Assembly (NCBI GenBank): GCA_016699245.1
Contig: CP064968.1
Location: 576,317 to 640,316 of the forward strand
Direction of reading: 5' to 3'
Source: Candidatus Kaiserbacteria bacterium
GTDB lineage: Bacteria; Patescibacteriota; Minisyncoccia; Phycocordibacterales; UBA918
Length of the DNA: 64,000 nt
The notes under the pieces are model-generated. The model saw only the letters and a program-made list of their open reading frames with translations, ran no database searches and was not told the origin of the DNA. The translations under genes and the position numbers were made by a program. This document shows positions 3,456-45,224 of the stretch, one piece after another; position 1 is the stretch's first letter, and every line of letters starts with the position of its first letter.

Positions 3456-4733
3456 TCATTTTACCTGTACTTCAATCAATTTTTCTACCCGTCTAATATC
3501 GGCAAGTAATTTGGAACGTTCGGTATTAAAAAGCGTGATTGTGAAAACGGCTTTTCCTCCATGGCGTGCAAAGACACAAGTATCACCCACTTTCTTAATC
3601 AGTTTGATTTCATTAAATGATGCCAATTCTTGGCATTTCTTTATACCTTTCAGTGCTATAATCTTCCCCTCTTTTTTTGAATACCATTTGATGGTTGCTG
3701 CGAAGCCTTTGCATTTTTTTGGTGTATGCGGTTTCTTGGGCATACGCACGAGAATATCATTGAGCGAATGATCAATATCGCAACTGAGGCGATGCAATTT
3801 ATCGCGAAATCCACCCACGCGTGGACCTATCTCGATAATTTTCCACTCATCGTCCATCTTCATGAGTTCTACATGTGCAGTCGTGTTGCGTAACCCGAGT
3901 GCGTGAATGCCCGCTTCCGCAGCAGTGTGTGCTCGCAGGATAGAAGTTTGTTTCAAATGAGTCGGACTCATGTGAAGGTAGTTAAAAAAGTCTTCATGGC
4001 CGATGTTGTGCCCCGTTAGGACACGCACCATAGGGCAAAAATACATCACGCCGCGTGAATTGACATACGCATCAACAGAATACATGTCCCCCTCCATAAA
4101 TTCCTCCACCATCATGCGTGGTTCTTCGGTGCGATTGTTTTGGGCATACGTCTGCTCAATTTTTTTACTCAGATTCGTGAGTGCTTTTTTTAATTCATCT
4201 TCGTGATAGCACAGTGACACTAAAAGACTTTGTGCGAGATTCGTAGGCTTAACAATCATTGGAAAGCCAATTTTTTCAATGATGCGCTTTCGCTCGCCTG
4301 TCGTATTACTTTTCACAACGGTATACTTTGGAGAAAAACGCGGTGCAAGGAGTTTAAACCTGCGACGCATCTCGAGTTTGTCGGTAGCCCATATGAGGGA
4401 CTCGGTGGTGGGTGTACGGAGGTATGGCACATGGGGGATAACTTCAATGAAGCGTGCCATGTGAGATTCAGAACGACAGGTGATGGCACAGAGTTGGCTT
4501 TGATACGGCGCAAGGGCTTCCGCGATGCGCGCAGGCGTATTGAGGTCGCACTCGATGAGTATATCAAGTCCTTTGTATGACTCGATTTCTTTCTGTTTCC
4601 CTTCATGTGCATCGCGAATAAGCATGACTTTAAACTTGCGTTTTTCTCTTTTCTCGTACGCACGAATACTCCCAACCGCACCCGCAGGCAGAACAGAAAC
4701 GTATACAATGATGTTTCGTTCTATTTTTTTCAT
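3456..4733 (-). CDS. ATP-grasp domain protein (carboxylate-amine ligase)
   Basis: 425 aa with a central ATP-grasp fold signature (FPMIVKP...EEFMEGDMYSVDAY...IIEIGPRVGG). Confidence 0.6.
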   Translation of the reverse strand: MKKIERNIIVYVSVLPAGAVGSIRAYEKREKRKFKVMLIRDAHEGKQKEIESYKGLDILIECDLNTPARIAEALAPYQSQLCAITCRSESHMARFIEVIPHVPYLRTPTTESLIWATDKLEMRRRFKLLAPRFSPKYTVVKSNTTGERKRIIEKIGFPMIVKPTNLAQSLLVSLCYHEDELKKALTNLSKKIEQTYAQNNRTEEPRMMVEEFMEGDMYSVDAYVNSRGVMYFCPMVRVLTGHNIGHEDFFNYLHMSPTHLKQTSILRAHTAAEAGIHALGLRNTTAHVELMKMDDEWKIIEIGPRVGGFRDKLHRLSCDIDHSLNDILVRMPKKPHTPKKCKGFAATIKWYSKKEGKIIALKGIKKCQELASFNEIKLIKKVGDTCVFARHGGKAVFTITLFNTERSKLLADIRRVEKLIEVQVK

Positions 4734-4877
4734 GAGAGTGTGTGCAACACAAGAAATGGGTCACACAAATAATGGAGTAGGATAATTATTGTTCGAGACT
4801 ATACCATAATCACATATGTATGTACAGAAATGCTGTTGCAAATCTGGGACTCGTTATAACTAAAATAGTATGGGTGT

Positions 4878-5789
4878 ATGTCCAAAATCCCTTATATAGA
4901 CTATGATACTCGAATGGAAACATCTTCAAAAGTAATATTTTTAAACGCAGGGACTGAGACACGCAAAGCATTTCTCGCGGGGATTGGCGATACTCCCTAC
5001 AAGTGGTACCACACGAAGAATATTGCACTCCATGTTTCAAAAGAAGGGGATGTAATTTTTATACGCAGAAATAAGCGTATCGACTGGACAGGTGCACAAG
5101 TCTTCACACGCCTTCGTGGTACCGATACTCAATTCTGTGGGATTCTTTATGACTATTTTGCTCATCACCACATTCCCGCAAGTGACCCTATCAATCGTTC
5201 CTATGAAAATAGCGCAGAGAAAATATCACAAATGTCACTTCTTGCGATGCATGGTATTCGCGTTCCGGAGTCATTTATTTTTCGTGAGGAATCGTATGCT
5301 CGAAATCAAGCCTACATAGAAGAGCGGCTCATCTTCCCCGCAGTGTATAAGACTGATGGGAGTAAGGGGCGCAATGTGCACTTTGCAGAAAATATTGGTG
5401 AACTGCGAAGACTTATTACAGCAAAGCAACCATATGTACTGGCGCTCGTGCAACCCTTCATTCAAAACACCTTTGATACGCGTACCCTAGTAGCGTTTGG
5501 CGAAGTACTCGGCAGCATTAAGCGAACACGCACAACCGGCTACCTCAACAACATCGCACAGGGTGCGATACCCGAAGTGTATGCGCTCACTGATATAGAA
5601 AAAGAAATTGCACTTCGTTCAGCAAAGGTATGTGGCATGGATGTCGCAGGCATCGACATGATACATACCGCAGAAGGACCAATTGTCCTCGAGGTCAACA
5701 AGTCACCCCAGATTCACGGCTTCGAATCCGTACACAATTTCAAAGTCTTCGAAAGAATCGCCGAGCTCATGCTCAAGCGAATGAAATGA
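4878..5789 (+). CDS. RimK-like ATP-grasp ligase (alpha-L-glutamate ligase family)
   Basis: Consistent with the RimK family: FPAVYKTDGSKGRNVHF...LVQPFI...GMDVAGIDMI...IVLEVNKSPQ. It is divergent from the previous ATP-grasp gene. Confidence 0.65.
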   Translation: MSKIPYIDYDTRMETSSKVIFLNAGTETRKAFLAGIGDTPYKWYHTKNIALHVSKEGDVIFIRRNKRIDWTGAQVFTRLRGTDTQFCGILYDYFAHHHIPASDPINRSYENSAEKISQMSLLAMHGIRVPESFIFREESYARNQAYIEERLIFPAVYKTDGSKGRNVHFAENIGELRRLITAKQPYVLALVQPFIQNTFDTRTLVAFGEVLGSIKRTRTTGYLNNIAQGAIPEVYALTDIEKEIALRSAKVCGMDVAGIDMIHTAEGPIVLEVNKSPQIHGFESVHNFKVFERIAELMLKRMK

Positions 5790-5829
5790 AAACAGCACTT
5801 ACAGTATGTAGTCAGATATTATAATATTA

Positions 5830-5849
5830 CCCGAGGACAGTCCTCGGGG
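5830..5849 (+). terminator. Hairpin cccgaggac-ag-gtcctcggg after the RimK-like gene
   Basis: Perfect 9-bp GC-rich stem 40 nt after the stop codon. Confidence 0.4.
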
Positions 5850-5904
5850 AAGATTATAATAAGTAATTGGCACTCTCGGGCATTTCCTGGAATTAAAATA
5901 TCAT

Positions 5905-6579
5905 ATGCAACTAGATACTGAACTCCGTATTGAACAAAACAAGGTATTGCTCCCATTCATTACACTAAAAATAGGGAATAAAACAATTATCATAATAGGA
6001 ATGCTCCATGTTGCCTCGAGGGCGTATTTCGAAGTTGTTCTTTCTCGTCTCAATTCATATGAATCTGCTGGATTTAAAATATTGTATGAAGATATCGAGA
6101 GCGTACCATCTGCATCTCAAGAGAATCTTGATAATTTGCTTAAAGGTCTAGAAATGTATGGTCTATACAGCCAACTAAGCTTCATACAACCGAAAACATC
6201 ATGGGTGTCTGCTGATGTATCACCAGAAGAAATGGTAAAAAACTTTCCTCAAGTAGAAGACTATGCTGAGAATATGAAGAATCCAGAAAAATATTTACAG
6301 GAGATACTGCTACCAGAATTACGCGGTTCTGGACCTGAAATACCGAATATTGAATTTGTAATTAATACAAGAAACCAATCCGCGGTAAATGCGATTCTCA
6401 AACACATAGAGAATGGAAACGTTGCAACCTATTGGGGTTGTGCTCACATGCCAGGAATGATTCATTTACTTGAACAGTCATCATTTACCATCAAATCAAT
6501 TGAGTGGATTGAGGCAATTGATATAGAAAAAATCAGTACGGGATTTTGCACTCTTCGAAGCAGTGGGCATCGCGATTGA
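5905..6579 (+). CDS. Hypothetical protein (possibly TraB/GumN-like)
   Basis: An IIIIGMLHVAS motif resembles the TraB family GTAHV motif. The last ~11 codons lie inside the duplicated arsR 3'-end fragment, so the native C-terminus was probably altered by the insertion. Confidence 0.4.
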   Translation: MQLDTELRIEQNKVLLPFITLKIGNKTIIIIGMLHVASRAYFEVVLSRLNSYESAGFKILYEDIESVPSASQENLDNLLKGLEMYGLYSQLSFIQPKTSWVSADVSPEEMVKNFPQVEDYAENMKNPEKYLQEILLPELRGSGPEIPNIEFVINTRNQSAVNAILKHIENGNVATYWGCAHMPGMIHLLEQSSFTIKSIEWIEAIDIEKISTGFCTLRSSGHRD

Positions 6580-6667
6580 GGGTGTAGATTCGCTCGCGTC
6601 CTTCGTCGCGCACTGAAACGGAACCACTGATTTAAGCACGCTGAGATGATGCGTAATGTTGGGTTTA
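6547..6667 (-). pseudogene. Degenerate 121-bp duplicate of the arsR-family gene 3' end
   Basis: About 90% identical to 7428-7549. Translates as TITHHLSVLKSV, then loses frame through a 1-nt deletion. Confidence 0.7.
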
Positions 6668-6680
6668 CGAAACCCAACAT
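6656..6680. repeat. REP-like 25-bp palindrome (left end of the RAYT unit)
   Basis: atgttgggtttacgaaacccaacat is a perfect palindrome. Its reverse complement occurs at 7376-7400. Confidence 0.75.
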
Positions 6681-6686
6681 ATATAC

Positions 6687-7373
6687 TTGTGTAATATGGA
6701 ATTATTTCATGTTTTGAACAGAGGGGTTGATGGTCGTATTCTTTTTAAAGACTCTGGCGACTATGTTCGATTTATACACAATATGTATGAATTCAACGAC
6801 GCGAACCCAGCACCACAATCAAATCGACGCCCTGGTGATATTGCTGACATCACAATTAAAGAACGTGAGATTTTGGTTGATGTACATGCGTGGGTACTCA
6901 TGCATAATCATTATCATCTACTCCTCTCTGAGCATAGAGAAGGTGGTATCTCTCTTTTCATGCGAAAGCTTAATGTCGGATACGCAAATTATTTTAATGA
7001 ACGATACCAGAGAAGTGGCACCCTATTTCAGGGGCGAACAAAAAAGATTCATATCGAAACAGACGCCCATTTTTTATATATTCTCCACTACATACACCTC
7101 AACCCACTCGACTATCTTGAAGGAGCGCAAGAGTGGCGAGTGCGAGATGCTTCAAAAACTTCTGAAGTAGAATTCTCACAACTCCAGACACATCTTCATC
7201 AGTACAGGTGGAGTAGTTATCAAGATTACCTCGGTAAGAAAAACTTCCCTTCCATACTCACCACAACACTGTTTCAAGAAAAACTTGGGGATGTACAAAG
7301 GAGTACAGAGAAATATCTTCAGAGCATTTCAGACGCACAAACTGCCATGCTATCAAAACTTTTCCTCGAGTAA
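6687..7373 (+). CDS. IS200/IS605-like Y1 (HUH) transposase, REP-associated tyrosine transposase (RAYT) type
   Basis: HUH motif VLMHNHYHLLL and C-terminal catalytic Tyr region YRWSSYQDY. The gene is flanked at 6 nt and 3 nt by inverted 25-bp palindromes. Confidence 0.7.
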   Translation: MCNMELFHVLNRGVDGRILFKDSGDYVRFIHNMYEFNDANPAPQSNRRPGDIADITIKEREILVDVHAWVLMHNHYHLLLSEHREGGISLFMRKLNVGYANYFNERYQRSGTLFQGRTKKIHIETDAHFLYILHYIHLNPLDYLEGAQEWRVRDASKTSEVEFSQLQTHLHQYRWSSYQDYLGKKNFPSILTTTLFQEKLGDVQRSTEKYLQSISDAQTAMLSKLFLE

Positions 7374-7375
7374 TC

Positions 7376-7400
7376 ATGTTGGGTTTCGTAAACCCAACAT
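7376..7400. repeat. REP-like 25-bp palindrome (right end of the RAYT unit)
   Basis: atgttgggtttcgtaaacccaacat is the exact reverse complement of 6656-6680. Confidence 0.75.
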
Positions 7401-7416
7401 CCAACATTGAATAAAT

Positions 7417-7770
7417 TTAATACGGAATCTTGCACTCTTCGAAGCAGTGGGCGTCGCGGTTGAGGGTGTAGATTCGCTCGCGTCCTTCGTCACGTACCGA
7501 AACGGCACCTACTGATTTGAGTACATTGAGATGATGCGTAATGGTGGGTTGCTTGAGTCCTAAACGCTCGGTAAGTTTCCCTACCGTCTCCCCTTTTTTT
7601 GCTTTCCCGAGGAAACACACTAATTTATAACGGCTCTCCACACCCACTACCTTGAAGCAGTCGGGGCAGAGTTCCTGCTCGCTCACTACCGTTTTTCTCA
7701 CCCATGCTGGACGGGGGTACGTTCGTGTTTTCGAATGCGTGTCTTTTTGTGCTTTTTTTACTTTTTCCAC
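7417..7770 (-). CDS. ArsR/SmtB-family metalloregulator (HTH)
   Basis: ELCPDCFKV metal-binding-like motif followed by a winged HTH (LGLKQPTITHHLNVLKSVGAV). Divergent from nrdD. Confidence 0.65.
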   Translation of the reverse strand: MEKVKKAQKDTHSKTRTYPRPAWVRKTVVSEQELCPDCFKVVGVESRYKLVCFLGKAKKGETVGKLTERLGLKQPTITHHLNVLKSVGAVSVRDEGRERIYTLNRDAHCFEECKIPY

Positions 7771-7875
7771 AGTCTCAAAAATTATATAGATGAGTATCTA
7801 TATATGATATATAGGCTATTATCTATTAATTGTACCAGAGGTTGCACTCGCGAGGCAACGCCTTTTAGAAACACC

Positions 7876-10032
7876 ATGCCAAATATCACAGAAAGCACCA
7901 CGCTCACCCACGTTATCAAGCGCTCTGGACGTAAAGTACCCTTCAATAAGGGGAAAATCACTCGTGCTATCGAAAAGGCCCTCCACGCTACCGGTGTGTA
8001 CAAGCCGGCCACTCCAGAGAAAATCACCAAGGCGGTCATCGCGGAACTCAATTCCCTCCACAAATCAGACCCGGCCTTTGTCCCTTCTGTGGAAGAAGTG
8101 CAAGACGTGATTGAACGTACTTTGATGGAGGTCGGATACCTTGATACGGCAAAGGCATACATTCTTTATCGCGAGCAGCACGCGCAGATTCGCAGGATGA
8201 TTCAAACCGAATCTATCGACTTGGTCGACCAATACCTCGCATCGGCAGATTGGCAGGTGAAGGAAAACAGCAACATGGCATTTTCCCTCCAAGGACTCAA
8301 CAACTACATCGCATCCGAGGTTTCAAAAAACTACTGGCTCAACAAAATCTATCCACCCGAAATTCGTGATGCTCACCAAAATGGTGACTATCATATTCAC
8401 GACCTCAATCTTCTCTCGGTGTACTGCGTGGGCTGGGACCTCTTTGACCTTCTGAAACGCGGCTTTGGTGGTGTGCCTGGCAAGGTTCAGAGCAAGCCTG
8501 CAAAGCACTTGAAGACCGCGCTCGGGCAAGTAGTGAACTTCTTCTACACCCTCCAGGGCGAAGCAGCGGGTGCACAAGCATTCTCAAATGTGGACACACT
8601 CCTTGCGCCATTCATCTGGTACGACCATCTTTCGTATGATGAGGTAAAGCAAGCAATTCAAGAATTTGTCTTTAATGTAAACATACCGACTCGCGTGGGC
8701 TTCCAAACCCCCTTCACCAACATCACGTTAGACCTCACGGTACCTGCCCACTACGAAAAGATGCGCGTCATCATAGGGGGAAAAGAGATGAAAGAGACAT
8801 ACGGTGAGTTCAATAAAGAGATGGCGATGTTTAACCGCGCATTCCTCGAAGTCATGAGCGAGGGCGATGCTTCAGGGCGCGTCTTCACCTTCCCTATTCC
8901 CACATACAACATCACCAAGGATTTTAACTGGGATGATGAAAACATCGTGTCGCTTTGGGAGTCTGCAGCAAAGTATGGTATTCCGTACTTCTCCAACTTT
9001 GTAAATTCAGACATGAGTCCCGATGACGCCCGTTCCATGTGCTGTCGCCTCCGCATCGACAACCGTGAACTCCAGAAACGTGGTGGTGGTCTCTTTGGTG
9101 CCAATCCACTTACGGGCTCTATTGGTGTCGTCACCATGAATCTCCCTCGCCTCGGCAAGACCTCAAAAAACAAAGCAGATTTCCTCGAGAAACTAGCAGT
9201 ACTTATGGACAGTGCCCGTGACAGCCTTGAGATAAAGCGCAAAATACTTGAGCAATTTACTGACAAAAATCTCTACCCATACACCAAGTACTACCTTGAA
9301 AATATAAAAATTGCCTACGGCACCTTCTGGAAAAATCACTTCTCGACAATAGGCCTTGTAGGCATGAACGAAGCAATCCAAAACCTTCTACATACCTCAA
9401 TCGCTACCGAAGAGGGACAAGCGTTTGCAGCAGATGTACTCGACTTCATGCGTAGCAGAATGTCTGACTATCAGGAAACCACGGGCAATAATTACAACCT
9501 CGAAGCAACGCCCGCAGAAGGCACCTCGTACCGCCTTGCGCTCATCGACCAAAAGAAGTTTGACGACATGATTTTTGCAAACGGTGTCGGACAAGAAGCA
9601 ATCGACCCGTACTACACCAATTCTACCCATCTTCCCGTACAACAGAGCGAGGACATCTTTGAAATTCTTGAACTTCAGGATACGCTTCAGACAAAATACA
9701 CTGGGGGTACGGTAATCCACTTCTTCCTCGGTGAACGGGTGCAGGATGTGAACGCAATAAAAAATCTGGTAAAGAAAATCTGTAGTGAATACAAACTCCC
9801 GTACTTCACCATTTCCCCCACCTTTAGTGTCTGCAAAAATCATGGATATATTCACGGTGAAGCATTCACCTGTCCTACGTGTAACAGTGAATGTGAAGTG
9901 TACACCCGTATCGTCGGTTACCTTCGTCCCGTAGAGCAGTGGAACAAGGGTAAGCGCGCAGAGTACGGCAATCGTGCGCACATAGAGCCGGAAAAAATAG
10001 AGATAACTCATAACCAGCATGCAAAGGTCTAA
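7876..10032 (+). CDS. nrdD: Anaerobic ribonucleoside-triphosphate reductase (class III)
   Basis: N-terminal ATP-cone. C-terminal Zn-ribbon TCPTCNSEC and glycine-radical motif RIVGY. Start placed at MPNITES, because the 5' extension in the ORF track is AT-rich promoter-like DNA. Confidence 0.85.
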   Translation: MPNITESTTLTHVIKRSGRKVPFNKGKITRAIEKALHATGVYKPATPEKITKAVIAELNSLHKSDPAFVPSVEEVQDVIERTLMEVGYLDTAKAYILYREQHAQIRRMIQTESIDLVDQYLASADWQVKENSNMAFSLQGLNNYIASEVSKNYWLNKIYPPEIRDAHQNGDYHIHDLNLLSVYCVGWDLFDLLKRGFGGVPGKVQSKPAKHLKTALGQVVNFFYTLQGEAAGAQAFSNVDTLLAPFIWYDHLSYDEVKQAIQEFVFNVNIPTRVGFQTPFTNITLDLTVPAHYEKMRVIIGGKEMKETYGEFNKEMAMFNRAFLEVMSEGDASGRVFTFPIPTYNITKDFNWDDENIVSLWESAAKYGIPYFSNFVNSDMSPDDARSMCCRLRIDNRELQKRGGGLFGANPLTGSIGVVTMNLPRLGKTSKNKADFLEKLAVLMDSARDSLEIKRKILEQFTDKNLYPYTKYYLENIKIAYGTFWKNHFSTIGLVGMNEAIQNLLHTSIATEEGQAFAADVLDFMRSRMSDYQETTGNNYNLEATPAEGTSYRLALIDQKKFDDMIFANGVGQEAIDPYYTNSTHLPVQQSEDIFEILELQDTLQTKYTGGTVIHFFLGERVQDVNAIKNLVKKICSEYKLPYFTISPTFSVCKNHGYIHGEAFTCPTCNSECEVYTRIVGYLRPVEQWNKGKRAEYGNRAHIEPEKIEITHNQHAKV

Positions 10033-13841: not shown

Positions 13842-13911
13842 CTACTCAATAAACTCAATCTGAAAAGGGTACATGCCCATACCACAGTTACCTGTGAGGG
13901 GGCTTTTTTCA
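13842..13911 (-). repeat. Degenerate duplicate of the last ~22 codons plus stop of the gene at 15014-15415
   Basis: Reverse-strand translation ...GNCGMGMYPFQIEFIE* matches ...GSCGMGMYPFQIEFIE* at 15014-15083. No upstream ORF accompanies it. Confidence 0.75.
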
Positions 13912-13972
13912 CAAATCAAGGCCGGGCCTTGTACGAATGTACAAAGTCCGGCCTTGAACGAAGTTGTATTTA

Positions 13973-14941
13973 CTACCTGAGCATCTGGGTTACGAGTGCG
14001 ACCATCTGATCTTTCTTTTCAGGATCACTTTCTGCAATAAGAAGTGTGAGTGCGGTGAGTGCTGCGGGGTTTATCTGCGATGCGCCTCGTGCCCCTGCTT
14101 TTTTGAGGAGCCACACAAAGGCAAACGCTCCTGAGCGCTTGTTGCCATCTGAAAACGGATGATTCTTTATAACGAAGTAGAGGAGGTGTGCTGCCTTCTC
14201 TTCAAGAGTGGGATACACAGGCTTTCCACCAAATGACTGCATAACATTCCCCACAATTCCTTCGAGCGCTCCGCGACTACGTTCATTCGCAAAAAGTTCT
14301 GTCGCTTCCCCCTTTTTCATAAGTATTGTTTTGAGACTCTGAAGTGCAGTATCAAGGTCGCTCCCAAGAAGTGTTACTTTTTTCCGTGTGACACCTTTGG
14401 TAACAAGTGTTCCTTTATCATACGCATCGAGCGATACCCATGTGGTTGCAAACTCCTTAATAAGTTCAAGTACCGACTTTGGATCGAGGGTGACGTGCTC
14501 AGGAAGGAGTGCCTGCACATCCGCAACCGACTTCATAAAAGCATCGTAGTTCTTCCCTACTAACTTTTTGTTGATGGTGTATCCCTTCGTGATATGTTCA
14601 CGAAGCGTCTTCGTCGCCCACTGGCGAAAACGAATTGCGGTTACTGAATTTGTGCGATACCCCACCGCTAAAATAATATCGAGTGAATAAAGTGATATTG
14701 GTTTGTCAGAATTTGCAATGTGCATTTTTTGCACATTGCTTTTTTCCGCAATTTCATCACTCTTGAAAAGATTTCCGATGTGCTTTGTAATCACCGAACG
14801 CTCTACCCCAAACACATCAGCAATTTCTTGTTGCGTTGCCCATACCGTATCATGCCTGAAATCCCCCCGAAGTTTTACATCACCACTGGGACCTCTAAAC
14901 AATACAAGTTCAGTTTTATGCATTTCCTTTTTCATACACAC
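13973..14941 (-). CDS. Fic/DOC-family protein with an N-terminal RhuM-like domain
   Basis: Doc/Fic motif HPFSDGNKRSG near the C-terminus. The N-terminal half resembles the RhuM virulence-protein family. Confidence 0.7.
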   Translation of the reverse strand: MCMKKEMHKTELVLFRGPSGDVKLRGDFRHDTVWATQQEIADVFGVERSVITKHIGNLFKSDEIAEKSNVQKMHIANSDKPISLYSLDIILAVGYRTNSVTAIRFRQWATKTLREHITKGYTINKKLVGKNYDAFMKSVADVQALLPEHVTLDPKSVLELIKEFATTWVSLDAYDKGTLVTKGVTRKKVTLLGSDLDTALQSLKTILMKKGEATELFANERSRGALEGIVGNVMQSFGGKPVYPTLEEKAAHLLYFVIKNHPFSDGNKRSGAFAFVWLLKKAGARGASQINPAALTALTLLIAESDPEKKDQMVALVTQMLR

Positions 14942-15013: not shown

Positions 15014-15415
15014 CTACTCAATAAACTCAATCTGAAAAGGGTACATGCCCATGCCGCAACTTCCTTCGAGGGGGCCTTTTTCATTCACACCTATATCAAT
15101 ATCGGTCGTACCTGATTGAGGAAGTATTTGCGACACGTCGCGGCTCGGGATACGTACTGATGCAGAGCAGTCAAAGGTGCCGGTAGTATTAAAACGCACA
15201 ATGGTTGGCACTCCCGCTTTTGCGGTGCTCACCTCGGGAAGGTAGCCGCCCTTTGCATCTATCATCACCACCTGTTTTTCTCCCTCCATAGTCACATTAC
15301 TGGTGATAGTTGTCGGTACCACTATTGATGTTTCGGTAGATTTTTCACGCAAGAAGAATGCGCCCATAATGATGAGCACACCTACCCCTACTGCAATGCC
15401 AAGATTTTTATTCAT
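15014..15415 (-). CDS. Secreted/membrane-anchored putative metal-binding (cupredoxin-like) protein
   Basis: N-terminal TM anchor and a C-terminal Cys/Met-rich tail CGMGMY. Co-directional with, and 5 nt from, the downstream permease. Confidence 0.45.
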   Translation of the reverse strand: MNKNLGIAVGVGVLIIMGAFFLREKSTETSIVVPTTITSNVTMEGEKQVVMIDAKGGYLPEVSTAKAGVPTIVRFNTTGTFDCSASVRIPSRDVSQILPQSGTTDIDIGVNEKGPLEGSCGMGMYPFQIEFIE

Positions 15416-30216: not shown

Positions 30217-30304
30217 GTATTGATTCTACATAATTTTTCCTCAGGAAACTACTATTACGTGCTGGCCGTCTGGGACGATATGAGAACTTATGTAACCACC
30301 CATT

Positions 30305-31228
30305 TCATCGAGATTGTGTACCCAGACATGCACGGAGATCTGCTGTCTCTGTCCAGCCACATTGACCACTTGCTTGACGTTCGCACACTGCACTCTGATA
30401 GCAAGCGTATTCCTCCCTGAACTCACATGTTGATGCCATATCCGGTTGATCCGAGCAGAGCTGTGAGGAACAGCCACCGCGGTAACATGTATCTGAAGGG
30501 TTTGTCACGATAGGTGCATCTTGTTTTACTACATTAAAATTAAAACGGTATTCTGTCTCTTCGACATCTATTTTTGAATTTTTTGGAGGAGTAACGTTTG
30601 TCAGTGTTATGCTCATTCCCTCCGTTGTAAACTCTTGGCCAAGTTCTACTATACTCGTGCTTGTGCCGGTACGTGAGACCACTTGAATTTTGAGACGCAC
30701 CGTTCCAGCCTGAATACAGGTTACGTCAACAGGACAACGACTATCTTCTTCTATAGAAAGTGGAAGGATAGATATTGATGTAAAGGTACCAAGTTCTCCC
30801 AATCTAAGACCAGTATCTGTATCTGGCGATACGGAAGGAATCTGAGGAATTTCCTCAGCAGACTCACATGTCTCCAAGTCAATAAAATCTACCGCGCTGG
30901 AGTTTCCTCGTTTGTATTCTCCTAGCAACGTAATTGTCCTATCATTTTTCAAGTAATAGCACTTCGCATCCAATATACCCGGCACCCCGCTTCCTCGCTG
31001 TATAAATCCAAAATACCAACCATCTCGACTTTGTTTAGACTCTATAGAACTCGGGGGCAAATCAGTAGTCTGATATACAGCTAATTGAGGATATTGTACG
31101 AGTATTGCATCGAGCGCTTCCTTTTCTCCGAGTACGCTTGTAGGCTGAGAATCAGGCTGTATGAACATCTTTACCAAAAGTATGATTAGTAAAACTAAGA
31201 TAAAGGTGGCGAGTATTTTTGTTTTCAT
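30305..31228 (-). CDS. Secreted protein with a Cys-rich C-terminal domain
   Basis: Signal/TM N-terminus. The C-terminal 60 aa contain 10 Cys. Confidence 0.5.
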   Translation of the reverse strand: MKTKILATFILVLLIILLVKMFIQPDSQPTSVLGEKEALDAILVQYPQLAVYQTTDLPPSSIESKQSRDGWYFGFIQRGSGVPGILDAKCYYLKNDRTITLLGEYKRGNSSAVDFIDLETCESAEEIPQIPSVSPDTDTGLRLGELGTFTSISILPLSIEEDSRCPVDVTCIQAGTVRLKIQVVSRTGTSTSIVELGQEFTTEGMSITLTNVTPPKNSKIDVEETEYRFNFNVVKQDAPIVTNPSDTCYRGGCSSQLCSDQPDMASTCEFREEYACYQSAVCERQASGQCGWTETADLRACLGTQSR

Positions 31229-31467
31229 ACCTTAGTATACATTTTTATTGACTGTCTGGGTGGGTTAGCTCCGAAGGTCTGACCCTTATCGCTGTCAAAG
31301 CCATTTGCTAGCCATCTGGGACGATATTTGAACGTATTTAGCACTCTCAACGTAAGTATGAACTTGGGTCTGAAAAGTTCGACTATCTGGAGAATTTAAA
31401 ATCCTATATAAAATAGAATAAGATAAGTGGAAATGTGGTCAGTGAACCGACCCTATTTCTTGTAGAC

Positions 31468-32193
31468 TTAGATGGTGGCTCCACTGGGGAGATTCATTTC
31501 AGATTTGTACTTCTCGATAACTTCAGGATGTTTGCCTTCTTTGCATTCTGCGACAAATGTATTCGCTTCTGCGCTGTCGGGGAATGTCATATAGGAAAGG
31601 GCTCCTTCGCATATGACGTCCGCGTTTAATTTTCCAGAAACATGAGTCTGCCCATTAAATGCTTTAAGCGCGTTGGATTCTACAATACGCTCTGCTTCCT
31701 CATATCCCTCATGGTAATCAAAGTTCCAGCGCGGAGGAAGCGCGAATACGTAAAGATTATTTCTTCCTAGTTCAGTTGCGAGTATAGGAGCAGCTGATAC
31801 AGAAAAATCTTCAGCGATGTATGAATCCCATTGAGCCAAGGTGAAAACCATGACAGGAATATCTTCATACGGAAGTGTTGCGGTCCACTTTGGATTTCGG
31901 ATCAAAAGTGTAACCCCTGTTTGTGTACTTTCCGTGGACGTTAAGGGATTCCCTTCCCACGTGTTTTCTACAATGGAATATCCTTCCCAGTTTTGAGGGA
32001 GTGAAAAGGTAAATCCGAAGTCAGTATTGCTATATACGATAGAGGTGCTCGAAGCAGTGGGTTCCTGTACCGGCACTGTTACTTTATTTTTGTCACGAAG
32101 AGAATATCCTACTATTCCTAATACCATCAGACTTACGACGACGAGTAGTATAGAGATTATTTTGTTGCTTTTCATGTCTAAAGTGTACCACAA
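31468..32193 (-). CDS. Secreted hypothetical protein
   Basis: N-terminal TM/signal. No recognised motif. Confidence 0.5.
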   Translation of the reverse strand: MWYTLDMKSNKIISILLVVVSLMVLGIVGYSLRDKNKVTVPVQEPTASSTSIVYSNTDFGFTFSLPQNWEGYSIVENTWEGNPLTSTESTQTGVTLLIRNPKWTATLPYEDIPVMVFTLAQWDSYIAEDFSVSAAPILATELGRNNLYVFALPPRWNFDYHEGYEEAERIVESNALKAFNGQTHVSGKLNADVICEGALSYMTFPDSAEANTFVAECKEGKHPEVIEKYKSEMNLPSGATI

Positions 32194-32462
32194 AAAACAA
32201 TATCATTTTAGTTGTGTCAAGGCTGCGGGCCATCTGGGACGATGTTCGAACTTTTGTATTTAATGAATCTACTGTATAGTCACACTTGAGTGCTTGGATT
32301 ACCAATCTCTATGTCCGGTGTCGACAACAGGTTGAGAGCACAAGTAAACCTGCTGCCCACAGCCACGACAAACGACGGCCGTAACTATAACGGTCATCTG
32401 GTGTCCAAGCACTCACCCGCCACCTTTAATGGTGGCTTTTTCTTTCATAAAACGAGCTGGCC

Positions 32463-33038
32463 TTATGGGAGGATGTTAGAACCATCCTTCTCTAGAAAAT
32501 CTTTAATCTGCAGATTAGTCATTGGCGCTGATATTTTTCCAGAAAGATACTTTATCGTAACCACATGATGCTCCTCATCCCATGAATTGATACAATCCAA
32601 AGCAAGGATCACCTCGTAATCTCTCTGATATGCATCTATTACTGCCATTCTGACGCATGCATGCGTATTGATCCCTGATATGATGAGTGTATCTATTCCA
32701 AGCGCCTGAAGCATCTCATCAAGGTTAGTTTTATAGAACGGACTATACCTCCTTTTAATAATTTCTAAATCGTACGTCTGATGGTCAAGACCATCCAAAA
32801 GCTTGCTCCCTTCAGTTCCAGCAACAACAAATCTCTTACCTAATTTGCGATCGCCTATGAAGGCATCACTTCCATCAGGTTTCATTTCCTGCCTGACCCA
32901 AATGATCGGTACGCCATGCTCCCGTATTATTCCAGACAGAATATTTATCTTTGGAACTAAATCACTTTGAATTGCATTAAGTTCTACTGACTCAAAAAAA
33001 TCCTTTTGAAGATCAATGATGAGTAAAGCTGGTTTCAT
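32463..33038 (-). CDS. Isochorismatase-family cysteine hydrolase
   Basis: ALLIIDLQKDF (the catalytic Asp region), and a GINTHACV region containing the catalytic Cys. Confidence 0.7.
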   Translation of the reverse strand: MKPALLIIDLQKDFFESVELNAIQSDLVPKINILSGIIREHGVPIIWVRQEMKPDGSDAFIGDRKLGKRFVVAGTEGSKLLDGLDHQTYDLEIIKRRYSPFYKTNLDEMLQALGIDTLIISGINTHACVRMAVIDAYQRDYEVILALDCINSWDEEHHVVTIKYLSGKISAPMTNLQIKDFLEKDGSNILP

Positions 33039-33179
33039 ATTGCGTTAAGTGTATCAAAGTTCAAAAGTAAAACTCTTGATCTAATTCAACCTCAAATAAG
33101 GCTGGATGACGTGCTGGCCATCTGGGACGATGTTCGAACTTTTTTACAAACTAATCATTTCGTATACTATAATTAAGAA

Positions 33180-33977
33180 ATGAAAACTTGGCTGATTGGA
33201 AGCGACTTGGATGGAACACTGATCTATCCAGATAATTCTCCTGAAGTAAATCTGGGTACAAAAGCTTTTAACTTAATAATCCAAAAGCATAGAGAATCAC
33301 ATACTTTAGCCTACGTAACTGGCCGTCACCTTGAAAGAGCTAAAGAAGGAGTAAAAGAAGCTGGTCTTATTGAGCCAGATTTTTATATCTGTGATGTCGG
33401 AACCACTATCTATGAACAAAATGTCTTAACTGGAGCTTTTTCTCTTGACCAAGTTTATAGGGATCAACTTACAAAATCTTGGCAAGAAACCACAAAAGAC
33501 AAATTGATTGATTGGCTACAAAATTTTCCTTTCCTTACCCTACAAGAAGATAATAGACAGGGTGAATTTAAACTGTGTTACTACGTTTCTTCCGACATTG
33601 AGCGTGAATCATTTGAAAATTCTGTTATTAAACAGATAACAGAGGAATTTAAACTTCAAGCGATATACAGCACTGACCCAAATAATAATATTGGCTACTT
33701 AGATATCCTTCCTAAAGGAGCATCTAAAGAATCTGCATTAAACTTTCTAGCTCAAAAGACTAATATTTCTAAAGATAGAATTGTCTATGCTGGAGACAGT
33801 GGTAACGACTTAGCTGTCTGCAAAGCGGGAATAAAATTTATCATTCCTCAAAAAGCCAGTGAGGAAGTTAATTCTTTTTTCTTATCACCAGAAAATTCTA
33901 GTTGTATTTATTATAAGGTTACAGAGCCCTTTTGCTTTGGTTTACTTGAAGGACTCCGTTACTTTAAAGTCTTTTAG
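33180..33977 (+). CDS. HAD-IIB family hydrolase (sucrose-phosphatase / Cof-like)
   Basis: DLDGTL motif I, and motif III/IV YAGDSGNDLAV. A TTTACA-17 nt-ACTATAAT promoter-like sequence lies between motif copy 4 and the ATG. Confidence 0.7.
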   Translation: MKTWLIGSDLDGTLIYPDNSPEVNLGTKAFNLIIQKHRESHTLAYVTGRHLERAKEGVKEAGLIEPDFYICDVGTTIYEQNVLTGAFSLDQVYRDQLTKSWQETTKDKLIDWLQNFPFLTLQEDNRQGEFKLCYYVSSDIERESFENSVIKQITEEFKLQAIYSTDPNNNIGYLDILPKGASKESALNFLAQKTNISKDRIVYAGDSGNDLAVCKAGIKFIIPQKASEEVNSFFLSPENSSCIYYKVTEPFCFGLLEGLRYFKVF

Positions 33978-34196
33978 AAAATCTATAGTTGTATTGCTGG
34001 CCGTCTGGGACGATGTTAGAACTTTTTATACAACAAAAAAGTAAATATTTGCAAAATGCGTTACAATTAAAACTATATGGGCAGAAAAAAGAATGTAACT
34101 TGCACATCGGTATTCTAGGTATGCGGATTTCTCTTTTTTTTATATGCGAAATTTTGGTCCACCTCACTATCAATCCAGTCATGGGCAGAAGTCTCA

Positions 34197-34472
34197 ATGC
34201 CAATAACAGCTTATCTGTCGAGTACTGTTGTTATAGCGATGATGCTTTGGTTTGCTATGCAAAGAAGTAATAGTGTATGGCAAAAGACTGTATGGATACT
34301 TTTCGTAGCATTAATCATCGGTGGAGTTGGAAGCTATGTATGGAGAGGCAACACACTAGTAAATCAGTGCACATCACAAGGTGGAATACTTGACCAGCAA
34401 AATAAAGTTACTTCTTTTAATTTCAAATGCGAGCAAGTTGGCACAAATAAAATATTGCCTCTTGTGAATTAA
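34197..34472 (+). CDS. Small membrane protein
   Basis: 91 aa with two TM helices. Confidence 0.4.
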   Translation: MPITAYLSSTVVIAMMLWFAMQRSNSVWQKTVWILFVALIIGGVGSYVWRGNTLVNQCTSQGGILDQQNKVTSFNFKCEQVGTNKILPLVN

Positions 34473-34527
34473 TATTATGTTAGAAGACTAAAAAGCGATT
34501 GCTGGCCGTCTGGGACGATGTGAGAAC

Positions 34528-35004
34528 TTATTTAACAAGTTCAAGAGCGACTGATGCATAGCGATATACATCATCACGTAAACGTTCATCGTTTGTATGC
34601 ATTTGATTTAATTCTTCTTTTGTTACCCAAACACACTGAGCATTTTTACTTGCCTCCTCTTGGGGTTTTATTTCACGACTATTCGACTTTGCAAAAAAAA
34701 TAAAGGAGGAATGGTCGTGGTGCTCGTTAATTGAATGTCTATTAACAAAGATCGGTGGTACCAAATCTTTATTGATGTCAAAGTCTTGTTTGGTCCACGT
34801 ACTTGGTCCGATCAATTCGACTTTCAAACCAACCTCCTCCCAAACTTCTCGAAGTACTGCCTCATTAATATCTTCTCCTGGATCCACATGACCACCTGGA
34901 GCAATCCAGAAATTATATTTTTCGTGTAAACGTAAAAGCACGGCTTTGTCGTTCACGATATACGCATCAGTACAAAGATCGACATAATAATTTAAATGAG
35001 CCAT
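34528..35004 (-). CDS. NUDIX hydrolase
   Basis: Nudix box GGHVDPGEDINEAVLREVWEEVGL. Confidence 0.75.
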   Translation of the reverse strand: MAHLNYYVDLCTDAYIVNDKAVLLRLHEKYNFWIAPGGHVDPGEDINEAVLREVWEEVGLKVELIGPSTWTKQDFDINKDLVPPIFVNRHSINEHHDHSSFIFFAKSNSREIKPQEEASKNAQCVWVTKEELNQMHTNDERLRDDVYRYASVALELVK

Positions 35005-44549: not shown

Positions 44550-44640
44550 TAGTTTGGATACTGCTCTCAGCAGGTATGCCATTTCAGAATAGTCCTCGGG
44601 TGGTTTCGACGCGTCTCGTGCGCGATAACCTACCTCGAGT

Positions 44641-44714
44641 TGGCTGCCGATCAGGGACTCGAACCCCAATGACTTCCTCCAGAGGGAAGCATCCTACCAT
44701 TAGATGAATCGGCA
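44641..44714 (-). tRNA. tRNA-Gln (anticodon CTG), CCA encoded
   Basis: Manual cloverleaf: U1-A72 acceptor pair with G73, as in bacterial tRNA-Gln. Anticodon loop CTCTGGA. T-loop TTCGAGT. Confidence 0.7.
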
Positions 44715-44719
44715 ATGTG

Positions 44720-45224
44720 ATATGTGCGTTTGTACAAGGTTCTCGTTTGGACTCGATTCCTACAGAATCTGTTCAGGTTGTCGATACTTTATTTCGCATG
44801 CACTCATAAATTATCTGGCAACCTTCTTGAAAAGTCTCCCAGACTTTTCAAGCCCCAATGACTTCCTCCAGAGGGAAGCATCCTACCATTAGATGAATCG
44901 GCAATGTTTGTTTTGTACTTTGTTTGTTCTCGTTTGGACTCGATCATTACATGATCAGTACACGTTGTCGATATTTTTACAAAATATCTGGCAACGTCCT
45001 GAAATGATACCCCATATCATTTCAGCCCCAATGACTTTCTCCCGGGGGAAGAATCCCACCATTAGATGAATCGGCAATATTTTGTACGTCGCCCAGATTA
45101 CTTTTTTTGGGATGCGTGTGTGCATCGTCTGTTTTTCTTCCGTGGGGAAGAAAAACAGACGGGCTCAGAAATTATAATTGCTTCGCTCTTTAATTTCTGG
45201 CCACCATTAGATGAATCGGCAATG
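44720..45224 (-). repeat. Two and a half tandem ~180-bp units, each ending in a copy of the 5' ~55 nt of tRNA-Gln
   Basis: Fragments at 44853-44906 (near exact), 45026-45078 (diverged) and 45201-45224 (short). The spacers share blocks ttctcgtttggactcgat...gttgtcgata...atctggcaac. Confidence 0.7.

Follow-up and report, generated by a model that had tools for sequence, protein, structure and literature searches.

How does the end of one gene come to stand twice, on either side of a small transposase gene? We examined this question in a 64,000-nucleotide stretch of a Candidatus Kaiserbacteria genome (contig CP064968.1, positions 576,317 to 640,316), henceforth referred to as the window. Here, the last codons of an arsR-family regulator gene are repeated beyond a gene for a Y1 HUH transposase-like protein that is itself bracketed by two palindromes. 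An earlier note on this DNA saw a RAYT/IS200-like element whose insertion at the 3' end of arsR had created the duplication. IS200/IS605-type Y1 enzymes cut and join single strands and make no target duplication. We estimate a probability of roughly 60% that the repeat is the scar of one-sided homologous recombination completed by a microhomology join, and that, as a separate matter, the transposase cassette spread horizontally at one site.

The repeated end of arsR

We read positions 5800-8200 together with the list of open reading frames (ORFs). The gene order is a RimK-like gene, a hypothetical gene (geneA), the displaced arsR end (a'), the left palindrome (hpL), the transposase ORF, the right palindrome (hpR), the intact arsR gene and nrdD (Table 1). 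The palindromes described earlier are real: both are perfect, 25 nt long, with an 11-bp stem and a 3-nt loop, and they bracket the Y1/HUH gene. hpL (6656-6680) reads ATGTTGGGTTT-ACG-AAACCCAACAT and hpR (7376-7400) reads ATGTTGGGTTT-CGT-AAACCCAACAT; the stems are identical and the two palindromes are mutual reverse complements. The same unit of palindrome, gene and palindrome lies at the same position in five other genomes (L001, L004, L007, L010 and L014).

The direct repeat (6529-6665 versus 7413-7550) is about 137 bp long, rather than the 121 bp first proposed, and its copies are 89% identical with one 1-nt indel. The duplication itself was correctly recognized, as were the 1-nt deletion and the divergence of about 10% in the distal copy. 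It spans the last 44 codons and the stop codon of arsR plus ~4 nt downstream. The copy attached to the intact gene (a) and a' differ by 11 synonymous changes (including the stop, TAA to TGA), two non-synonymous changes and one deletion. Decay of a' in place would be expected to make ~58% of the changes non-synonymous, and the probability of observing so few is 0.002. Most of the states seen in a' are found in other natural arsR alleles; the arsR of L141, for example, has the same TAC-TGA ending. Likewise, the arsR fragment of L007 shows 3/52 differences from the arsR of L001 versus 7 from its own. Because the differences are mostly synonymous, a and a' must have diverged as working alleles in different genomes. 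These sequence comparisons argue firmly that the repeated end is not a target-site duplication and that a' represents the 3' end of a different, once-functional arsR allele.

The edges of the repeat are informative. On the outside, the repeat breaks off at the stop codon (+0 to 4 nt); in 46 other arsR loci, homology between alleles is likewise lost at this point, where variable downstream DNA begins. The inner edge falls inside the hairpin stem, at a microhomology of 10/11 nt (AATG[G/T]TGGGTT), where the inner end of a' merges into the arm of hpL (AATGTTGGGTT versus AATGGTGGGTT in arsR). In L004 and L007 we found a second junction type, located at another patch of similarity with the hairpin arm (~8/11 nt). 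The length of the fragment varies within the clade: it measures 137 bp in the window and ~55 bp in both L004 and L007, whereas L010 has none and L001 none that is clear. No significant structure that an HUH enzyme might recognize was detected in the duplicated segment (z = 0.5 and -0.2), a check that the earlier note had suggested.

Among 78 loci of the transposase family, repeats beyond the hairpins were seen only in the clade of the window and in L031. The latter holds a 59%-identical family member, with the same layout, beside a convergent helicase gene, which is an unrelated host gene. The helicase 3' end forms a perfect 36-bp direct repeat (L031:3900-3935 versus 4742-4777), and the left copy, left of hpL, runs on to its own alternative stop (KN* instead of R*).

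A second repeat, at the cupredoxin gene

The window contains another repeated gene end. A 70-bp repeat of a cupredoxin 3' end (13842-13911 versus 15014-15083, 89% identity) flanks a Fic/RhuM gene and one hairpin. The earlier note reported the same architecture at this locus; the repeated gene end is indeed present, but there is neither a transposase nor a palindrome pair. The distal copy encodes ...PLTGNCGMGM... (the TGN allele), as in P0125 and P0142, and is 94% identical to L092 versus 89% to the cupredoxin gene of the window itself. L095 and L096 align collinearly (83%) with both the cupredoxin gene and the beginning of RhuM/Fic, and therefore Fic did not arrive as a cassette. In L092, the insert downstream of the cupredoxin gene is a different one, a 226-aa gene, and it is followed by a 71-bp relic of the Fic 3' end (L092:1140-1210; 86% identity to window positions 13973-14043). 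This 226-aa gene was considered as a possible transposase and rejected. In our preferred reading, the cupredoxin/Fic repeat is the same kind of scar as the arsR repeat, made without a transposase. No tRNA gene is involved at the arsR or the Fic locus. A candidate third scar, a 300-nt repeat at ~40 and 43 kb, was rejected because it corresponds to two paralogous genes.

The two loci bear on three other explanations of the repeats. The first, the one proposed originally, is transposition of the Y1 element into the end of arsR, with a long target duplication as a product of the insertion. The repeats do directly flank the hairpin-gene-hairpin unit, and a second family member, in L031, also has flanking repeats. 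However, the rarity of flanking repeats in the family is difficult to reconcile with a product of the insertion itself, and the repeat beside this cassette, which keeps to one site, measures 0, ~55 or 137 bp depending on the genome. Furthermore, the copies are diverged alleles, and the junction lies inside the hairpin stem, whereas a Y1 enzyme is not expected to cut its own recognition stem. Neither the outer edge (a stop codon) nor the inner edge (a microhomology) resembles a transposase cleavage site, and the Fic locus has a repeat without a transposase. We consider this origin hardly credible.

The second is an in-situ segmental duplication, in which a template switch at the palindrome copied the arsR end across the cassette and the copy then decayed, with occasional gene conversion. 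The microhomology at the junction, a 33-nt tract found only in a and a', and the short tandem duplications next to hpR, seen in the window as well as in L010, would all fit. This model is at odds with the 11 synonymous versus two non-synonymous changes (P = 0.002 under the model), with the L007 fragment being nearer to the allele of L001 than to its own, and with the cupredoxin fragment being nearer to the allele of another genome than to its own. It is improbable in our judgment.

The third is that the repeats are the attL and attR sites of a small non-autonomous element whose integrase acts in trans and targets gene 3' ends. The region is a hot spot of variable genes, and gene 3'-end repeats around inserted DNA are typical of integrase-borne islands. 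Against this, no integrase gene is found among the ORFs of the two inserts or next to them, mismatches occur throughout the repeats instead of leaving identity concentrated in a core, the repeat length varies (36, 55, 70 and 137 bp) and the inner ends coincide with the hairpin microhomology. Such a scar is very improbable.

The cassette is at the same site but younger than its flanks

We compared the six loci that carry the cassette. It adjoins the arsR-nrdD pair in L001, L004, L007 and L010; in L014 it is located just past RimK and the contig ends before arsR. The homology of the relatives with the window begins exactly at hpL, and the interval between RimK and hpL differs in every genome. 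This interval contains several genes in L001 and L007 and geneA in the window. In L010 the RimK stop codon (TAG) abuts hpL directly and there is no arsR fragment. In L014, two copies of the hairpin (L014:1415-1439 and 3961-3985) enclose 2.5 kb of cargo, with one gene of 341 aa (J-domain-like) and another of 285 aa; the first hairpin copy abuts the RimK stop as in L010. The comparison of orthologous arsR loci suggested by the earlier note yielded the cassette at the same site without the fragment (L010).

Nucleotide identity is 91-97% across the cassette and 67-88% immediately outside hpR; the cassette most similar to that of the window is found in L014 (96%). Synonymous divergence (dS) between genomes is 0.09-0.56 for the transposase gene, versus 0.57-1.7 for arsR and 0.8-1.9 for nrdD, and by this measure the cassette is about ten-fold younger than the flanking genes. 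The tree topologies are also incongruent: the window is nearest to L014, L001 and L007 by the transposase gene and nearest to L004 and L010 by nrdD. The cassette is absent from 46 more distant arsR loci from metagenomes, many of which keep the arsR-nrdD pair. The same cassette was not found at another site among 84 loci, a sample that comprises one genome per species and 64 kb of the genome studied here. The low dS of the cassette, the incongruent topology and the step in identity at the hairpins therefore point to horizontal exchange between lineages with breakpoints at the hairpins. These alignments show that the cassette spread recently between diverged Kaiserbacteria genomes, yet it stays just past the arsR stop. 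We infer that the enzyme had a role in this spread.

The closest host relative, L097 (NrdD 96.6% identical at the amino acid level), has a different palindrome of the family type (ATGACGGACATCGGATGTCCGTCAT; L097:1256-1286) 8 nt past the arsR stop. It occupies the same position as hpR, and the contig ends 38 nt later.

Proposed origin of the repeat

The allelic origin of the copies, the microhomology at the junction and the independence from the transposase are the parts of our preferred reading, a recombination scar, that the alignments show. For the route of recombination (transformation or some other transfer) and the sequence of events, we propose the following. DNA arriving from a related strain would have brought the whole cassette (hpL, transposase gene and hpR) together with an arsR 3' end of its own. 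It would have been anchored at one end by homology in arsR/nrdD (at the Fic locus, in the cupredoxin gene and its upstream DNA), and its other end would have been joined illegitimately where the hairpin arm and the resident arsR share the microhomology of 10/11 nt. The incoming DNA would thereby supply the complete gene and leave the resident 3' end behind as a direct repeat, the length of which would be set by the position of the microhomology within the resident gene. The resident arsR end would later have lost one base. Each event would require one step, by homology-facilitated illegitimate recombination or an equivalent one-sided event. Homology-facilitated illegitimate recombination has been described for naturally transformable bacteria.

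Several observations weigh against this reading. No genome that combines the cassette with the a allele, and could have been the donor, was found. In addition, the genomes with a 95%-identical cassette have an arsR that matches a at only 80-83%, and therefore the cassette and a need not have arrived together; a later exchange of the cassette alone at the hairpins must be invoked, unless the actual donor lies outside the genomes sampled. The 33 nt common to a and a' are in no other allele, which suggests gene conversion in the genome or a very close kinship of donor and recipient. L004 and L007 have a common junction type but different outer flanks, a pattern that requires either repeated use of one microhomology or a fragment that was co-transferred. 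Natural transformation is a postulate for this organism. Finally, we note that the numbers of differences are small (13 in arsR and 6 in the cupredoxin gene).

A related possibility is Campbell-type integration, in which a circle carrying the cassette and an arsR 3' end underwent a single homologous crossover at the resident arsR end, creating direct repeats on both sides that would permit excision and re-integration in new hosts. It would account for the gene-end direct repeats that flank an insert at three loci, for the copies being diverged alleles and for the joint of a' and hpL, which has the topology of a circle or tandem junction. Nevertheless, the junction of the circle would itself first need the same microhomology event, 36-137 bp of homology at ~89% identity is a poor RecA substrate, and the cassette does not need the fragment (L010 lacks it, and L001 has no clear one). 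We regard integration of a circle as unlikely, though it has more in its favor than a duplication in situ.

The transposase and its family

We assessed the identity of the transposase gene using sequence profiles, an alignment and a structural model. The product of ORF 6696-7373 matches the Pfam family Y1_Tnp (PF01797) with 26.2 bits (cut-off 23) and scores 37.8 bits with the NCBIfam model REP_Tyr_transpos (NF047646), below the equivalog cut-off of 80. Its motifs are the HuH at H72-Y-H74 (NHYH), FQ and Y132-IHLNP; the HuH and Y132 (YIHLNP) are invariant in an alignment of 70 sequences. The AlphaFold2 model has a mean predicted local distance difference test (pLDDT) score of 70, and the top Foldseek match is 4ER8, the Escherichia coli TnpA-REP, followed by structures of the ISDra2 and IS608 TnpA proteins (2XO6 and 2A6M among the matches). 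A sequence-profile search of the transposase against the Protein Data Bank gave no match even at E = 10, and only the fold search gave matches. Exact-protein look-ups of the arsR product and of the transposase had no match. The ratio of non-synonymous to synonymous divergence (dN/dS) of the transposase gene is 0.11-0.19, and therefore the gene is under purifying selection. From these sequence-derived lines of evidence, bases 6656-7400 are predicted to constitute a 745-bp cassette, a functional Y1 single-stranded DNA (ssDNA) transposase gene bounded by two cognate 25-nt palindromes. The RAYT-like gene in a hairpin-gene-hairpin (REPtron-like) arrangement that had been recognized by eye is borne out by the Pfam match, by a fold nearest to TnpA-REP and by ~80 homologous loci.

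When folded as ssDNA, hpL and hpR have energies of -10.5 and -10.1 kcal/mol (z = -5.6 and -4.3). A search of the 64 kb that allowed ≤3 mismatches retrieved hpL and hpR only (expected number 0), and no other hairpin of this type was found in the window. We considered and rejected a function as intrinsic terminators, as the palindromes lack a T-tail and were not called as terminators; with two copies in 64 kb, they are neither common terminators nor a dispersed repeat, in agreement with the earlier interpretation. They had been placed within 6 nt of the gene. This is correct on the right, where hpR starts 2 nt past the transposase stop. On the left, hpL ends 15 nt before the conserved ATG (MELFH...), and the distance is 6 nt only if the upstream TTG at 6687 is the start.

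The transposase has more than 3000 homologs, nearly all from Patescibacteria metagenome-assembled genomes (MAGs), and several MAGs hold 2-4 paralogs. The gene of the window is thus a member of a very large Patescibacteria Y1 family. We found no paper on this transposase family in the Candidate Phyla Radiation/Patescibacteria. Distant family members are not adjacent to arsR. We surveyed the hairpins in 80 genome loci encoding homologs plus the window (81 loci). A palindrome is located upstream, ~40 nt before the ATG, in 70 loci, just past the stop in 71 and within the ORF, at ~+130 to +160 nt, in 63. The internal palindrome is translated in frame (e.g., NVGFTKPYI) and lies in a variable loop N-terminal to the HuH, at residues ~45-55, that is modeled with low confidence (low pLDDT). 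Examples among L012-L089 are L019:4142-4168 and L012:4143-4167 (alignment columns ~110-125). The clade of the window has lost this internal copy.

The upstream and downstream stems match in 54 out of 62 loci, the stems differ among lineages, and 11 of 12 stem pairs covary with double changes. Although the percentage of paired positions is circular, given that the sequences were picked as palindromes, the diversity of the stems is not. Inverted bracketing by a cognate palindrome holds in most of the 81 loci. Only one family-type hairpin was detected in 203 kb of loci without the gene, and ~25 solo hairpins in ~600 kb near the family genes. Family-type hairpins are scarce away from the genes and therefore do not form a dispersed population of repetitive extragenic palindromic (REP) sequences. 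The palindrome of the window is symmetric, begins with ATGTTGGG and has no 5' GT[AG]G foot; an ATGTAGG or ATGTGGG foot is present in some other lineages of the family. Across the surveyed loci, the hairpins co-vary with the lineage at three fixed positions: upstream, downstream and, usually, in frame inside the gene.

Tentatively, the cassette could be a site-faithful mobile unit, in which the Y1 enzyme uses a rare "docking" hairpin already present in the genome to exchange or insert the DNA that lies between two cognate hairpins. If true, this would explain why the young cassette is always a few nt past the arsR stop, as well as the cargo of L014 and the hairpin of L097, and the third, in-frame hairpin would be a built-in alternative end or an autoregulatory site.

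Comparison with known systems

We compared the cassette to previously described systems, including the REPtron, a RAYT (TnpA-REP) gene flanked by inverted REPs (Nunvar 2010, PMC2817692; Ton-Hoang 2012, PMC3333891; structure 4ER8). The two have in common the Y1 HUH fold (4ER8 is the best structural match), the Y---NP motif and a gene bracketed by an inverted cognate palindrome that co-varies with the protein lineage. Unlike a REPtron, the cassette has no genome-wide REP population (two copies in 64 kb), its palindrome is perfect and symmetric without the 5' GT[AG]G foot in the clade of the window, the protein scores below the NCBIfam equivalog cut-off and the cassette spreads horizontally rather than being a vertically inherited single copy. 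The cassette thus lacks the three defining RAYT features that were tested (dispersed REPs, the GT[AG]G foot and the equivalog score), and it also lacks the tyrosine motif of IS200.

In its motifs, the cassette gene falls with TnpAY1 subclass 2.1 (Quentin et al. 2018, PMC6006769), which equals Bertels group 1, a group suspected of more horizontal transfer. This subclass has the motifs NH[YF]H, FQ and Y[IV]HLNP and a median length of ~238 aa. The proteins studied here share its motifs, its length (~225-238 aa) and a C-terminal extension; the assignment is based on alignment motifs compared with Table 1 of PMC6006769. No REP-like hairpins are reported beside subclass 2.1 genes (PMC6006769), whereas nearly every Patescibacteria member has hairpins, including the in-frame internal one. 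In subclass 2.4, with motifs NH[IFV]H, WQ and YIxNNP, REPs are inserted in frame inside tnpA-REP (PMC6006769). The family resembles it in having a cognate palindrome that keeps the frame inside the ORF, in a variable surface region, but differs in that the internal palindrome is N-terminal to the HuH, in that the clade of the window lost it and in the motifs. Hairpins had not been reported for subclass 2.1, and an in-frame internal copy has so far been described only for subclass 2.4.

The cassette also resembles IS200/IS605 elements (IS608, ISDra2) in its Y1 fold, hairpins at both ends, absence of a true target duplication and compact single-gene unit. Unlike them, it has the motif Y---NP (YIHLNP), not the Y---Q of TnpA-IS200 subclass 1.1, and a single perfect palindrome forms both of its ends, in place of two different imperfect ones. 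Near-identical copies elsewhere were not seen among the 84 loci, a set with one genome per species and 64 kb of the genome studied here. As for the repeat, homology-facilitated illegitimate recombination likewise combines one homologous anchor with a short-microhomology joint and inserts foreign DNA. It explains why a gene end was displaced, why the two copies are divergent alleles and how the junction sequence arose; in the present case it is deduced from sequence only. A microhomology of 10/11 nt is at the long end of the reported range. The arsR duplication itself is, in our preferred reading, an ordinary recombination scar.

Other features of the window

The coordinates of the features at the two loci are listed in Table 1. 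The last 14 codons of geneA (6538-6579) are an antisense reading of the arsR fragment a', and P0122, a homolog of geneA, stops at about residue 213 and lies in an unrelated context. Beside hpR, the heptamer CCAACAT occurs twice in the window (7394-7407), and in L010 an inserted 19 nt of CGAGTA-like repeats separates the stop codon from hpR (L010:4679-4699).

Table 1. Features of the arsR and Fic loci in the window
Feature	Positions	Strand	Remarks
RimK-like gene	4878-5789	+	
geneA (hypothetical, IPH92_02835)	5905-6579	+	Strain-specific cargo
a', putative displaced arsR 3' end of a different allele	6529-6665	-	Own stop TGA; 1-nt deletion
hpL, left palindrome	6656-6680	no strand	Left cassette boundary; homology of relatives begins exactly here
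Y1 HUH transposase-like gene, 225 aa	6696-7373	+	Based on Pfam, alignment, fold and dN/dS
hpR, right palindrome	7376-7400	no strand	Right cassette boundary; identity to relatives changes from ~95% to ~80% here
Tandem copy (CCAACAT) of the last 7 nt of hpR	7401-7407		Not in relatives (alignment)
a, 3' end of intact arsR	7413-7550	-	Last 44 codons, stop TAA and 4 nt
Intact ArsR/SmtB-family regulator gene	7417-7770	-	Divergent from nrdD
nrdD	7876-10032	+	
Putative displaced cupredoxin 3' end	13842-13911	-	Encodes ...PLTGNCGMGMYPFQIEFIE*; allele intact in other genomes
Imperfect 18-bp hairpin downstream of Fic	13916-13957		-17.9 kcal/mol, z = -5.8; not of the family type
Fic/RhuM gene	13973-14941	-	Between the two cupredoxin 3' ends
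Cupredoxin gene	15014-15415	-	Final 70 bp (15014-15083) form the intact copy in the second repeat

Other repeats are located elsewhere in the window. Seven copies of a conserved 41-nt motif (GCTGGCCRTCTGGGACGATGT...) occur at 30258-34538 with a spacing of 0.2-1 kb and probably mark a repeated gene or domain family. Three diverged tandem units of ~180 nt (63-78% identity) lie at 44619-45082, the first of which holds a tRNA-Gln gene (44641-44714). Two perfect tandem repeats are located downstream of tRNA genes: 76 nt present twice at 148-nt spacing (59579-59802) downstream of tRNA-Asp (59846-59921), and 155 nt present twice (60771-61080) downstream of tRNA-Met (61084-61158). An isolated 140-nt match (59186-59325) corresponds to positions 46-180 of the bacterial 23S rRNA. 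Finally, ~260 bp at 63050-63310 consist almost entirely of long C and G homopolymer runs, in a genome that otherwise looks AT-rich by eye; this stretch may be an assembly or sequencing artefact.

Implications

The long duplication at arsR is not a new transposition mechanism. It provides a rule for recognizing scars that can be reused: a diverged, synonymous-biased copy of the last codons of a gene, located beyond a strain-specific insert, indicates recombination between alleles. For the transposase family, a Y1 subclass reported to be free of hairpins has, in Patescibacteria, tightly co-evolving hairpins at three fixed positions. A cassette that moves between genomes with breakpoints at its hairpins is a tractable case for what RAYT-like enzymes do.

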